The notes: a model not told the origin generated them from the sequence alone. 64,000 nucleotides of DNA from Gammaproteobacteria bacterium (GCA_965222155.1 CBDCTH010000012.1:2336001-2400000), one strand, 5' to 3'. Counted from the stretch's first letter, positions 9,288 to 22,203 are shown. Numbers and translations: made by a program.

Positions 9288-9529
9288 ACCCGGATTTCTC
9301 ACCAGGTGATGCGATGATCGCGCAGGATTTTTTGCGCCAGCGGGTGCCTGCGACCGAAAGCATAGCCGTAAGCTCTGGTTGAGGGAGCACGTGCCTGCTG
9401 GCGCAAAAAAGACAAGCGAGGGCGCATCAAGCGCAGTTTGTAATACTAACATAGTAAGAGTCCTACCATAACTTATTGACAACAAATATATTTCCGAGAG
9501 CAACAAGCGACCTGGTGTGAAATCCGGGT
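9288..9529. mobile_element. MITE-A copy 1 (between rpsK and rpsD)
   Basis: TIRs ACCCGGATTTCTCACCAGGT / ACCTGGTGTGAAATCCGGGT; shared core GATGCGATGATCGCGCAGGATTTTT...AAAAAGACAAGCGAGGGCGCATC. Confidence 0.9.
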
Positions 9530-9534
9530 TTAAC

Positions 9535-9921
9535 CTACACCCGCCTTCTTTTCGGCGGGCGGCAACCATTATGGGGGATGGGCGTTACATCAGTGATATT
9601 GGTGATTTTATAGCCCAATGCATTCAGAGCGCGTACTGCCGACTCTCGGCCCGGTCCGGGACCTTTAATATTCACTTCCAGGTTCTTCATACCGAACTCC
9701 TGCGCAACTTCACCCACTTTCTGCGCGGCGATCTGTGCCGCGAACGGTGTGCTCTTCCGTGACCCGCGAAATCCGCTGCCTCCGGCCGTAGCCCATGCAA
9801 GGGTATTTCCCTGCCTGTCGGTAATATTGATTATGGTATTGTTAAATGACGCATGTACATGCGCGATACCATCGACTACCGTTTTCTTAACCTTCTTTCT
9901 TGTGCTTCTCGGTTTTGCCAT
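9535..9921 (-). CDS. rpsK: 30S ribosomal protein S11
   Basis: [27 protein letters not shown]. Confidence 0.98.
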
Positions 9922-9937
9922 TCACTTTCTCGTAGTG

Positions 9938-10294
9938 TTACTTTTTGATTATTCGGCGCGGCCCTTTGCGGGTTCTCGCATTGGTGCGTGTACGCTGGCC
10001 GCGCAAGGGAAGTCCGCGCCGGTGACGGATACCTCGGTATGCGCCTAAATCCATCAGGCGCTTGATGTTCATGGATACATCCCTGCGTAAATCACCTTCC
10101 AACTCATAATTCGTTACTTCCGACCGCAGCAGATCAAGCTGATCCTCACTAAGCGACGATACCTTGACGCTCGGTTCTATTGCCGTTGCCGAACAAATCT
10201 TCCGGGCGGTAGTGCTTCCTATGCCGTAAATGTGAGTCAACGCGATGCTGACGTGCTTGTGGTCCGGAATATTTACCCCTGCTATACGAGCCAT
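9938..10294 (-). CDS. rpsM: 30S ribosomal protein S13
   Basis: [10 protein letters not shown]; start corrected to 10294. Confidence 0.97.
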
Positions 10295-10323
10295 TTGTTT
10301 TCTCTCTTGTTCGTTATCCGGAA

Positions 10324-10349
10324 GGGGACGGAATTGAATTCCGTCCCTG
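10324..10349. repeat. REP-like palindrome GGGGACGGAATTGAATTCCGTCCCT in rpmJ-rpsM spacer
   Basis: Same GGGGAC(A/G)G...CTGTCCCC family as 25831-25925, 34420-34500, 39752-39783, 48013-48039. Confidence 0.75.
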
Positions 10350-10385
10350 TACGATTTCGGCAAGTATCTCGAGTCACCATCCGGC

Positions 10386-10499
10386 TCACCCTTGCCGCTG
10401 CTTATGGCGCGGGTCGGAACAGATAACACGGACACTGCCCCGCCGGCGGATAATGCGGCAATTACGACACATCTTTTTTACCGAAGCCCTGACTTTCAC
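10386..10499 (-). CDS. rpmJ: 50S ribosomal protein L36 (Zn-ribbon C+ type)
   Basis: Below ORF-track cutoff; GTG start, [37 protein letters not shown]. Confidence 0.95.
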
Positions 10500-10546
10500 T
10501 TCATTCTCCCGTTACACCCGCGTATACCACTGTAGGATGCGCATTA

Positions 10547-19174: not shown

Positions 19175-19450
19175 CTACTTTGATGTTTTTTTATCCGCGG
19201 CATGGCCGCGAAACGTCCGGGTTATGGCAAACTCGCCCAGTTTATGGCCGACCATATTCTCGGAAATAAAAACCGGTACGTGGTGCCGGCCATTATGTAC
19301 TGAAATGGTCAGCCCGACCATATCCGGCACTATCATTGACCTTCTGGACCACGTCTTAATTGGACGTTTGTCATTATTTTGAAGCGCAGTTTCGACCTTT
19401 TTGCTCAGGTGATGGTCTATGAACGGCCCTTTTTTTATTGAACGCGGCAT
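19175..19450 (-). CDS. rpsS: 30S ribosomal protein S19
   Basis: [19 protein letters not shown]. Confidence 0.98.
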
Positions 19451-19462
19451 TGCCAATCTCTC

Positions 19463-20287
19463 CTAGCTCTTCCTTTTACGAATAATCATATTGTCGGTAC
19501 GTTTGTTCTTCCTTGTTTTATAGCCTTTCGTGGGATAACCCCAGGGCGTGGATGGGTGCCGTCCCCCGGATGAACGTCCCTCACCGCCTCCATGGGGATG
19601 ATCCACCGGATTCATCGCCACGCCGCGTACCGTCGGACGTATTCCGCGCCAGCGTTTTGCCCCCGCCTTGCCCAATTTTTGCAGTGAATGTTCGACGTTA
19701 CTCACCTCTCCGATGGTGGCACGGCAATCCAGCGGCGCCTTTCTCACTTCACCCGAACGCAGGCGCAATGTCGCATGGGCGCCTTCCCGGGCCACTAACT
19801 GCACACTGGTGCCGGCGCTACGCGCCAGTTGCGCGCCCTTACCCGGCTTTAATTCCACGCAATGAACGTTTGCTCCCACCGGAATATTGCGCAGGGCCAG
19901 ACTGTTCCCGGGCGCTATTTCGGCCCGTGGACCGGACATCACCTGTGCTCCGGCCGCCACGCCGGCAGGGGCAATGATATAACGGCGCTCGCCATCCGCA
20001 TAACATAACAGGGCAATATGCGCGGTCCGGTTAGGATCGTATTCTATTCTCTCCACCGTGGCCGCAATACCGTCCTTGTCGCGTTTAAAATCAATGAACC
20101 GATAGCGTTGTTTTGCGCCACCGCCCCGGTGTCTTACGGTAATTCTGCCGCGATTGTTGCGGCCGGCGGTCTTGCCCTGCTTTTCCACTAACGGGCTGTA
20201 CGGTTTACCCTTATACAGGTCCGGGTTGACGACCTTGACAACGCCCCGGCGGCCTGCTGAAGTTGGTTTCGGATTAATTAGCGGCAT
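19463..20287 (-). CDS. rplB: 50S ribosomal protein L2
   Basis: [24 protein letters not shown]. Confidence 0.98.
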
Positions 20288-20293
20288 TTATCT

Positions 20294-20587
20294 TCAGGCT
20301 CCAATGAAATCTATGTCAAAGCCGGGTTTCAGCCTGACGTAAGCTTTCTTCCAGTCCGAGCGTTTGCCCGGCGCCCGCCGAAACATCTTTTTCTTGCCGC
20401 GCACGTTCAGTACCTGTACCGACTCAACCTCGACTTCAAACATTTTTTCCACTGCTTGTTTAATCTCCGGTTTGGTTGCATCACGCATGACCTTGAAGAC
20501 AAATTGCCGGTATTTATCAGCCGTGAACGTACTTTTTTCCGTCACCCGCGGCCCCAGCAAAATATTCATGAGCCTTTCGTCATTCAT
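20294..20587 (-). CDS. rplW: 50S ribosomal protein L23
   Basis: [12 protein letters not shown]. Confidence 0.97.
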
Positions 20588-21287
20588 CTTTACCCTCTCC
20601 AGCTTCTGCTTCCCCGTCTGCGGTCTCGCTCACGCTGACTTCCGGCTCTACTTGTCTGTGGTTTGTTTTCGGTTCCAGCCATTTTTCCACTTCTTCCAGG
20701 GCTGGTTTGGTAATCAGCACCCGGTTGAACCCGACCAGTGAATATGGATCGATTTCATGGGTATTTATAACGGCAACCCGCGCCAGGTTACGGGTCGCCA
20801 GGTGTAATTCTTCGCTGATGGAGTTGGTGATAATCAGCACCTCGTCCAGACCCAGCTGCGCCAATAGCTCAACTGCCGCCTTTGTCTTCGCCGCGCTGAC
20901 ATTCAATTGATCGATACAAAGCAGCCTTTCCTGACGAACCAGCTCGGACAGAATTGACCGCATAGCCCCGCGATACATCTTTCTGTTCACTTTCTTGGTG
21001 TAATTACGCTGGTTATTTGTGAAAGTAACACCGCCTCCACGCCAGAGCGGGCTCCTGATCGTGCCGGCCCTGGCCCGGCCAAGGCCTTTCTGGCGCCAGG
21101 GCTTTTTCCCGCCGCCTCTCACCGCGGAACGGTTTTTCAGCGATTTGAAAGCGGACCTGCCGCTCGACAGGTAAGAGGTAATCACCTGATGCACCAGGGG
21201 TTCATTGTAATCGGCAGCAAACACCTTATCGGCAACTTCCACTCGACCTGCCCGTTTTTTTCCGGCTTTGTGCAATACCAATTTCAC
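20580..21287 (-). CDS. rplD: 50S ribosomal protein L4 with acidic C-terminal extension
   Basis: [18 protein letters not shown] start at 21287. Confidence 0.96.
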
Positions 21288-21297
21288 CTTGGCTCTC

Positions 21298-21945
21298 TTA
21301 CGTTCCGGCTGACTTGAGCGCGGGCCTGACGATAAGCGTCCCGCCGGCGGCGCCCGGTACGGCGCCTTTGACAAGAACCAGGTTCCGTTCAGTATCAACC
21401 CTGACAACTTCCAGGTTCTGTGCCGTCCGTTTCACGTTGCCCATGTGCCCCGCCATCTTCTTGCCGGGGAAAACACGCCCCGGCGACTGGTTCTGACCTA
21501 TCGAACCGGGAGCCCGATGGGCACGGGAGTTGCCGTGAGTGTTACGCTGACTGCTGAAATTATGCCGTTTTATTACACCTGCGTAGCCTTTTCCAATTGA
21601 CTTGCCGGTCACGTCGACTTTCTGTCCGACCTTGAAAATATCTACCGTTATTTCGGATCCCGTACTCAATTCCCCGGCTTCTTTACCATCCAACCTGAAT
21701 TCATGCAGCCCCTCTGCAGATTCAACACCGGCCTTGGCCAGGGTTCCGGCCAGGGGCTTATTAATCAGGTTGCGGCGCTTGCTGCCATAAGAGACTTGTA
21801 CGGCGCGGTAGCCGTGTTGCTCCACAGTAGACAAGGAGGTAATCCTGTTAGGGTCGGCTTCGATCACGGTTACCGGCACAGACTGGCCTGTTTCCGTGAA
21901 TATCCGGGTCATACCCCGCTTTTTTCCTACTATTCCAATCGCCAT
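21298..21945 (-). CDS. rplC: 50S ribosomal protein L3
   Basis: [24 protein letters not shown]. Confidence 0.98.
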
Positions 21946-21961
21946 CTTTCTGACCCGTCTA

Positions 21962-22203
21962 ACCCGAATATTGCACCAGTGGATGCGATGATCGCGTAGG
22001 ATTTTTTGCGCTGGCGGGCGCCTGCGACCGAAAGCATAGCAGGAACTCTGGTTGAGGGAGCACGTGCCCGCCAGCGCAAAAAAGACAAGTGAGGGCGCAT
22101 CCAGCGCTGTTTGTCACGGCAACAAAATTTGAATTAGCCATATAACTATTTGATTGTACAATATTTTAGCCTTTTTACGAGCGAACTGGCGCAATATCCG
22201 GGT
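21962..22203. mobile_element. MITE-A copy 6 (between rpsJ and rplC)
   Basis: TIRs ACCCGAATATTGCACCAGT / ACTGGCGCAATATCCGGGT. Confidence 0.9.

Follow-up and report, generated by a model that had tools for sequence, protein, structure and literature searches.

Copies of a miniature transposable element with IS1380-type ends at six junctions of the S10-spc-alpha operons in a gammaproteobacterium

We have analysed a 64,000-nt stretch of DNA from a Gammaproteobacteria bacterium (GCA_965222155.1, CBDCTH010000012.1:2336001-2400000), which we call the window, and in which the string of ribosomal protein genes that makes up the S10-spc-alpha operons carries, at six of its intercistronic junctions, copies of one short repeat. 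These repeats belong to a miniature inverted-repeat transposable element (MITE) that is non-autonomous and borrows the ends of IS1380-type insertion sequences. An earlier reading of this DNA (the original prediction) had described a non-coding mobile element, and that description is borne out by the terminal inverted repeats (TIRs) of the copies, by duplications of their target sites and by empty sites in related genomes. Our observations are very probably to be explained by a selfish MITE that is mobilised by IS1380-type transposases and has recently inserted within a local hot spot. The further suggestion that the copies have been domesticated, or that they segment the ribosomal transcript through RNase III, is possible but unsupported.

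The copies and their host operons

A repeat search and a 7-row alignment placed the repeat unit at the six sites originally predicted and again near 52.6 kb. The bounds of each copy were taken as the first CCCGG to the last CCGGG, and positions in the window are genome coordinates minus 2336000. The host gene string, as recognized from Pfam matches and gene order, extends from S10 to RpoA on the minus strand (7615-22532), and the six copies, also on the minus strand, occupy its spacers as follows. Copy c1, at 9289-9528 (240 bp, B subfamily), lies in the S11|S4 spacer and is flanked by TAAA and TTAG; c2, at 11898-12144 (247 bp, A-arm subfamily), lies between L15 and SecY, with TGAG and CTAG as flanks; and c3, at 13669-13909 (241 bp, A-arm subfamily), lies between L6 and L18, with TTAA at its right side. 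Copy c4, at 14457-14695 (239 bp, B subfamily), separates S8 from L6 and has the flanks TTAG and CTGA; c5, at 18688-19170, separates S19 from L22, has A-type ends and the flanks GAAG and CTAG, and is the longest of the six at 483 bp, the other five measuring 239-247 bp; and c6, at 21963-22202 (240 bp, A-arm subfamily), separates S10 from L3 between the flanks TTAA and TTAG. The genes identified around the copies by Pfam (S10, L3, S19, L22, S8, L6, L18, L15, SecY, S11, S4 and RpoA) are all on the minus strand, and c1 through c6 are consequently all read in the mRNA sense. The seventh copy, c7, had been expected near 52617 and was found at 52618-52942 (325 bp, plus strand, B subfamily); it is inverted with respect to c1-c6, contains one extra three-hairpin module and lies beside insertion-sequence fragments.

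In the mRNA sense, a copy begins with a TIR of 17-19 bp, which is followed by an AT-rich arm (about 75 nt) and then by a nested, GC-rich palindrome (about 130 nt), and it ends with the second TIR. The consensus of the ends is CCCG[G/C]AT[A/T]T..CACCAG. The original prediction had started these ends one base earlier, as RCCCG; the repeats are present as described, but their supposed initial base belongs to a flanking 4-bp direct repeat of YTAR-like form. The greater length of c5 is due to additional nested hairpin modules within the palindrome. These extra modules lie at positions 18715-18772 and 18927-18984, and c5 and c7 share a three-hairpin module, which is placed at different points in the two copies. 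Long variants found genome-wide (311-590 bp) also contain additional GC-rich hairpin modules, and profile matches to them split at a few profile positions that recur, roughly 114, 151, 163 and 210. Two long open frames within the copies gave no match to a Pfam family. Similarly, no Rfam family was found for the MITE, either at gathering score over the whole window or at E <= 1 over positions 9200-22300, the only overlaps with copies at the latter threshold being at chance level (a snoRNA model, E = 0.64, and Ysr224, E = 0.78).

Insertion sites in related genomes

We located the S10-spc-alpha operon in 21 relatives, of which the closest (G032) has an L6 protein 96% identical to that encoded here. 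All six insertion sites are empty in G032, where the spacers S10|L3, S19|L22, S8|L6, L6|L18, L15|SecY and S11|S4 measure 29, 18, 8, 6, 8 and 11 nt, as against 272, 505, 251, 252, 255 and 258 nt, respectively, in the window; the premise that these spacers are normally a few nucleotides long thus agrees with the 6-29 nt seen in this relative. The empty S8|L6 site in G032 is CTAG and holds the S8 stop codon, the L6|L18 site is TTAA and holds the L6 stop codon, and the S19|L22 site is CTAT. In addition, contigs assembled from one DNA run (X4) skip c1, c2 and c6. Since the sites are empty in the closest relative, the six insertions are recent and lineage-specific, and none of them was shared among the operons of the 21 relatives examined.

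Spacers in the operons of other members of the genus have been enlarged as well, there being 16 such cases in 8 of the first 15 relatives. Profile matches identified full copies of the MITE in two of these genomes, at L6|L18 in G002 and at S19|L22 in G009, both in the sense orientation, and an 85-nt antisense derivative of the MITE at L6|L18 in G009. Six further relatives had no insertion of the MITE family in these operons. We also observed unrelated insertions: the L2|S19 spacer of G033 contains a different element of 265 bp, with long terminal repeats and a CTAG duplication, and other spacers with unrelated DNA were S13|S11, S3|L16 and S5|L30 in G002, and S10|L3 and L4|L23 in G003.

Target duplications and the IS1380-type partner

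The genome searched is a 4.55-Mb assembly of 12 contigs. For 82 non-redundant elements in it, the flanking tetranucleotide fitted YTAR at 47 left ends and 64 right ends, compared with a background of 0.47% of genome positions. Left and right flanks were identical in 28 of the 82, and nine of these identical pairs were non-palindromic (CTAA six times, TTAG twice and CTAT once). Because the identical pairs include non-palindromic ones, the duplication made by the MITE is 4 bp in length; by the same evidence, a TA duplication next to a terminal R or Y base, which we considered as a candidate, is ruled out.

The original prediction had guessed that the ends were of the IS982 or IS1380 type, and had noted that the window contains no transposase with matching ends. 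Both points were upheld, in that IS1380 elements with the same ends and the same 4-bp duplication are present elsewhere in this genome, and intact in relatives, and all of the IS1380 blastn matches fall outside the window. This genome has three IS1380-family copies (PF13701, NF033539), whose ends are CCCGGATATCTCACCA or CCCGCATATCTCACAAAC and which are all flanked by CTAG on both sides. One copy, of 1641 bp, lacks profile positions 177-235 through an internal deletion; the other two are 1768 bp each, and their transposases are 99% identical and have an in-frame TAG in common. The TAG-bearing copies (G000:C4:218372-220562 and G000:C12:about 1242400-1243870, in our numbering of genomes and contigs) have this codon about 80 codons before the end of the transposase. 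As each of them is at a CTAG site of its own, they must either have moved after the mutation arose or have been moved in trans.

Matches to IS1380 at E <= 1e-30 were found in 9 of 23 genomes, with this one included. Open frames of 483-508 aa are present in G004 (10 places), G002 (6 places), G005, G007, G011, G031 and G032, so that the IS1380 elements are intact in relatives and apparently defective in this genome. We read the ends of these insertion sequences in six relatives (G004, G031, G007, G005, G002 and G032). Among them is CCCGGATTTCTCACCA, from G032, which is identical to the first 16 nt of the B-type MITE end. The duplications adjoining them were CTAG, CTAT, TTAA, TTAG, CTAA/TTAG and CTAG/TTAG. 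In the genus, then, MITE and IS1380 copies have the same terminal repeats and the same kind of 4-bp duplication, and we infer from these sequences that the MITE is mobilised in trans by an IS1380-type transposase.

The events that we propose are as follows. A DDE transposase of the IS1380 family, which is related to those of piggyBac, would act on the 17-19-bp TIRs that begin with CCC, and would insert the MITE at a YTAR tetranucleotide (CTAG, TTAA, CTAA or TTAG) with duplication of the 4 bases. Since YTAR contains TAA or TAG, the stop codon or the next few bases will often be the only usable target within a tight operon, and an insertion between cistrons would be survivable because the duplication keeps the upstream reading frame closed and leaves the downstream start codon in place. 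A YTAR target would thereby account for the entry of a transposon into packed operons, at their stop codons, with no gene being broken.

Size, spread and subfamilies of the family

Searches of this genome with the seven copies (blastn) gave 183 merged places, and an nhmmer search with a profile of five copies gave 221 matches, 115 on the minus strand and 106 on the plus strand. When pairs of inverted end motifs were sought with <=3 mismatches allowed, 98 were obtained, 88 of which were 54-590 bp in length with a mode of 239 bp. The basic form of the MITE is 239 bp, with modular long forms of up to about 590 bp; a 158-bp form is represented by four paired elements of that length.

Of 18 genomes sampled in the genus, 16 carried the family, and among 12 taken from other families of the class none did. 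A 21-mer belonging to the core had exact matches in 63 stretches of public genomes, nearly all of them titled as metagenome-assembled Gammaproteobacteria, and a collection of plasmids gave no match to the MITE by blastn in its distant mode. The MITE was also seen in two records with the titles of other taxa. The first, titled Thermodesulfobacteriota (L083:5017-5158; GC content of the locus, 66%), has a form of about 158 nt that separates ndk from a succinyl-CoA ligase alpha-like gene; the insertion is at a TTAA which includes the stop codon of the upstream gene. In the second, titled Ca. Azotimanducaceae (L082:about 7070-7310), there is a 240-nt form with TTAG flanks. The occurrence of the MITE in records of other taxa suggests either transfer between lineages or mis-binning.

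The two subfamilies that had been predicted, in which left and right TIRs change together, were recovered in two ways. In the first place, the TIR tetramers of the 82 elements were paired as TTCT/TTCT in 50, ATTG/ATTG in 10 and ATCT/ATCT in 6, with 16 mixed or rare combinations. In the second, a maximum-likelihood tree of 33 full-length copies, from which c5 was left out as too long, joined c2, c3, c6 and one other copy in a clade with support of 100/99. Copies c1 and c4 were placed apart from each other within a large B clade, and the grouping of c5 with the A type is by its ends and arm, not by the tree. Because the tree sets c2, c3 and c6 apart from the two separate B-type copies, the cluster has at least three origins; the six copies would thus comprise four with A-type ends (the c2, c3, c6 clade, and c5 by ends and arm) and two from separate B-type source lineages.

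The fourth member of the A-arm clade is located upstream of prs-rplY, and a copy outside the tree, between tsf and pyrH, has A-type ends and a similar arm. A generalization that all A-type elements adjoin translation genes was dropped, as four of the 14-15 elements with A-type ends are antisense copies in other places, with unannotated neighbours. The gene string tsf-pyrH-frr-uppS-cdsA-dxr-rseP (G000:C12:1964000-1972500) contains, besides the copy at tsf|pyrH, which is in the sense orientation, an antisense copy of 311 bp at dxr|rseP and, at frr|uppS, an end motif standing by itself.

Local density and orientation

We defined usable target sites as YTAR sequences that are non-coding or overlap a stop codon, and found 11 of 7504 such sites in the 14-kb region of the ribosomal operons. 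On this basis 0.12 of the 82 elements would be expected in the region and 6 were observed (Poisson P = 3.8e-9). This is the only 14-kb cluster of four or more copies in the genome, all other stretches having at most three. The original prediction had attributed the cluster to targeting or domestication. The clustering itself is substantiated by these counts, but domestication accords poorly with the absence of the insertions from the closest relative. A hot spot in this region, combined with re-insertion of the A-arm lineage locally, is the most likely cause of the density.

Orientations were assigned by reference to gene calls from a crude caller, by which some short genes were missed. Among 89 paired elements, 29 were sense and 28 antisense with respect to co-directional genes, 17 lay between divergent and 7 between convergent genes, 4 were inside gene calls, 3 had no assigned orientation and 1 was at a contig edge; the genome-wide orientation bias that the original prediction had thought worth seeking was therefore not seen. 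For elements with both neighbours within 40 nt the counts were 16 sense and 16 antisense, and, outside the ribosomal region, 11 and 16. Full-length copies in the S10-spc-alpha operons across the genus are, in contrast, all eight in the sense orientation (six here, one in G002 and one in G009), which has a two-sided P of ~0.008 given independent events, although the events may be dependent. Since orientation is balanced over the genome as a whole, this bias is a local feature. It may, as a tentative proposal, reflect a tolerance in an essential transcript that depends on orientation. By eye, no bias with replication arm was apparent in the ordered list of elements.

We also examined codon usage, a weak proxy for expression, in genes beside the elements. 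The median was 0.748, as against 0.739 (P = 0.008), and the top-decile share in confident gene calls was 11%. There is accordingly a weak enrichment beside genes with ribosomal-like codon usage, and no clear enrichment beside highly expressed genes of the kind that the original prediction had envisaged.

RNA structure and alternative readings

In the mRNA, each copy is predicted to fold very stably, with the TIR duplex closing the structure. The alternative that survives best, though we consider it unlikely, is that the copies are a domesticated RNA module, retained in the sense orientation, whose TIR duplex of ~18 bp is cut by RNase III so as to split the transcript into parts that are stable or translated independently, or to insulate its cistrons. 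In its favour are the sense orientation of all eight full-length copies, in three species, their local excess, and the folding of c3 sense RNA at -100.6 kcal/mol (z = -8.9) with a closing TIR helix. Further, the genome has one RNase III gene, and RNase III is reported to be able to bind Correia elements and either to cleave or to protect them (PMC2649163). However, the antisense RNA of c3 folds even better, at -114.3 kcal/mol (z = -10.5), and folding thus does not single out the sense orientation. Domestication is likewise difficult to reconcile with the absence of the six insertions from G032 and from all of the 21 relatives' operons, with the 11 sense and 16 antisense copies in tight operon settings elsewhere, and with the antisense orientation of the G009 derivative.

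The palindrome provides another line of evidence on this question. An alignment was made of 76 full-length cores (73 distinct), to which this genome and the relatives' loci contributed 38 each. In the 32 consensus pairs, 96.9% of the cells were paired; shuffles averaged 88.0%, with 89.1% as the highest value, and none of the 500 equalled what was observed, slid controls gave 33-49%, and changes on both sides were seen in 18 of the 32 pairs. Non-Watson-Crick cells in the stem were divided between G.U on the sense strand (46) and A.C (47). Selection on one RNA strand would be expected to give an excess of G.U and a deficit of A.C. The symmetry observed suggests, rather, that the palindrome is constrained as DNA, or that its arms have been homogenised, and the lack of a G.U excess is a further argument against a domesticated RNA. 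Compensatory change in the DNA keeps the palindrome intact, presumably in the service of transposition. Of 31 full copies, 15 had an IHF-like motif at a single aligned position, the mean for shuffled arms being 1.9, and the genome contains three genes of the HU/IHF family. The RNA-run contigs X15 and X16 come from a related strain, as their pieces are mostly 90-99% alike, and among the pieces listed none bridged a copy. If RNase III does cut at a transcribed TIR duplex, such cleavage would plausibly be a by-product.

A variant of this proposal, to which we give similarly little credence, is that the ribosomal operons of this uncultured lineage are a preferred site of landing and retention in which only sense copies survive, as a tolerated or useful RNA module. 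Were it true, the module would either admit RNase III and so uncouple the cistrons, or fold as a compact hairpin by which the upstream stop codon and the downstream start are rejoined, and mobile DNA would be re-wiring the most conserved operon structure of bacteria.

It is more doubtful still that the copies act as donors of promoters or terminators, either through promoters in the AT-rich arm or the ends, or through termination of transcription by the other orientation. In antisense c2, c3 and c6 a hairpin of -10 to -13 kcal/mol lies within 1 nt of a run of five or six U residues, a comparable sense structure being seen only in c2, and a consensus scan found the same weak hairpin and T run on the plus strand in c1, c2, c3, c4 and c6. 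This antisense hairpin with its U run is a weak candidate for the cause of the orientation bias; against it, antisense copies lie <=40 nt from both neighbours in 16 co-directional gene pairs. The central stem was ruled out as an orientation-specific terminator, as in both readings it is preceded by a T run and followed by an A run. With regard to promoters, promoter-like sites were found in only two copies, at differing places, and their total of 13 compares with 14.2 expected from shuffles; a consensus promoter in the AT-rich arm was inconsistent among copies. Finally, the reading that the repeat is not mobile, and is an artefact of assembly, a cis-regulatory leader or a gene for a structured non-coding RNA, is hardly credible and is largely refuted by the precise empty sites and the target duplications: its internal structure covaries strongly and short-read contigs of run X1 break within copies, but the TIRs, the existence of matching autonomous insertion sequences, the occurrence of copies in both orientations and many settings and the lack of an Rfam match are all contrary to it, and X1 contigs extend from the flanking genes into c1, c3, c4 and c5, so that the junctions are not joins of this assembly record alone.

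The explanation that we favour, a selfish MITE mobilised by IS1380-type transposases, also has observations that weigh against it. All three IS1380 copies of this genome appear to be defective, and a working transposase was not found among them. The interior of the MITE was not found when the insertion sequence was compared with the genome by blastn (E <= 1e-3), and as only the ends are shared, the MITE is not a simple deletion derivative of that insertion sequence. At c2, c3 and c5 the left and right target copies are not identical, with 1-2 bases changed on the left or an indel between them; at L6|L18 the left TTAA has become TTGAA, and the stop codon there is now TGA. Lastly, a local density ~50 times that predicted from target availability, taken together with eight sense copies out of eight, goes beyond what target choice alone would give and leaves room for selection.

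Other features of the window

Several other features were observed. At 10262-10351 (minus strand) the Rfam model of the alpha-operon ribosome binding site was matched below threshold (31.3 bits, as against a gathering score of 38; E = 0.00049), upstream of a putative S13 frame labelled from gene order. The surroundings of c7 are a stretch rich in insertion sequences (51747-59710), with repeated transposase fragments, between homogentisate-pathway-like genes; its frames are at 51806-52423, 53033-54370, 56994-58472 and 58559-59599. A 16-bp unit is repeated in tandem about 11 times at 1549-1740, directly upstream of a tRNA gene (1766-1838), and a related 43-nt palindromic repeat is found at three places (1549-1740, 47824-47866 and 51559-51601). 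A 93-nt direct repeat, 89% identical between its two units, is located at 49940-50032 and 50228-50320, at and just upstream of the start of a 461-aa frame (50112-51497).

Discussion

In terminal repeats and 4-bp duplication the MITE resembles members of the IS1380 family (for example, IS1247), as these features match those of the genus' IS1380 copies. IS1247 itself is listed as 1672 bp in length, with inverted repeats of 16/13 and a direct repeat of 5 bp (Table 2 of PMC3281130). In studies of piggyBac, IS1380 transposases serve as an outgroup and the duplication is given as TTAA (PMC10813416). The MITE differs from IS1380 and piggyBac elements in that it has no transposase gene, has an unrelated interior and uses a YTAR target that is not strictly TTAA. 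The ends of piggyBac are of the form CCC...GGG.

Other short repeats offer parallels. Like the Correia elements of Neisseria (CREE/NEMIS), the MITE is short and non-coding with TIRs, is present in about 100 copies, is often co-transcribed with its neighbours and has a target containing TA; it differs from them in its host lineage, in its IS1380 partner family and in its 4-bp YTAR duplication. This likeness is by description, and cutting by RNase III or binding of IHF would be putative for the MITE. The ERIC, or IRU, repeats are transcribed intergenic palindromes with size variants that arise from internal insertions. Their likeness to the MITE, too, is by description, and the MITE family differs in its clear target duplications and in having an autonomous partner that matches it. 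Chunjie, a MITE in Geobacter uraniireducens, is similar in size, ~235 bp with size variants (PMC10969869); it figures as a single operon insertion, unlike the six in ribosomal operons here, and its host is different.

A MITE related to IS1380 was not described in the titles or abstracts of the papers listed in our searches, although supplementary lists could name one. The search yielded no paper on a MITE in a ribosomal protein operon and nothing relevant on MITEs in sponge symbionts, and a 2024 review of prokaryotic MITEs has no mention of IS1380, piggyBac, 'ribosomal protein' or 'stop codon'.

The MITE family provides a clean natural case in which an element of IS1380 type combines CCC...GGG ends with YTAR as its target, and its targeting of YTAR parallels the targeting of TTAA by piggyBac. 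It is an ordinary kind of element in an unusual place, and no new kind of system is required to account for it. Few bacterial gene arrangements are as conserved as the S10-spc-alpha string, whose spacers are only a few bases long, and yet in this genome about 1.7 kb of strongly folding DNA has recently been introduced at six of its junctions. From these six insertions, and from the other insertions in the operons of relatives, tight spacing and translational coupling would seem to be dispensable, or restorable, in this lineage.

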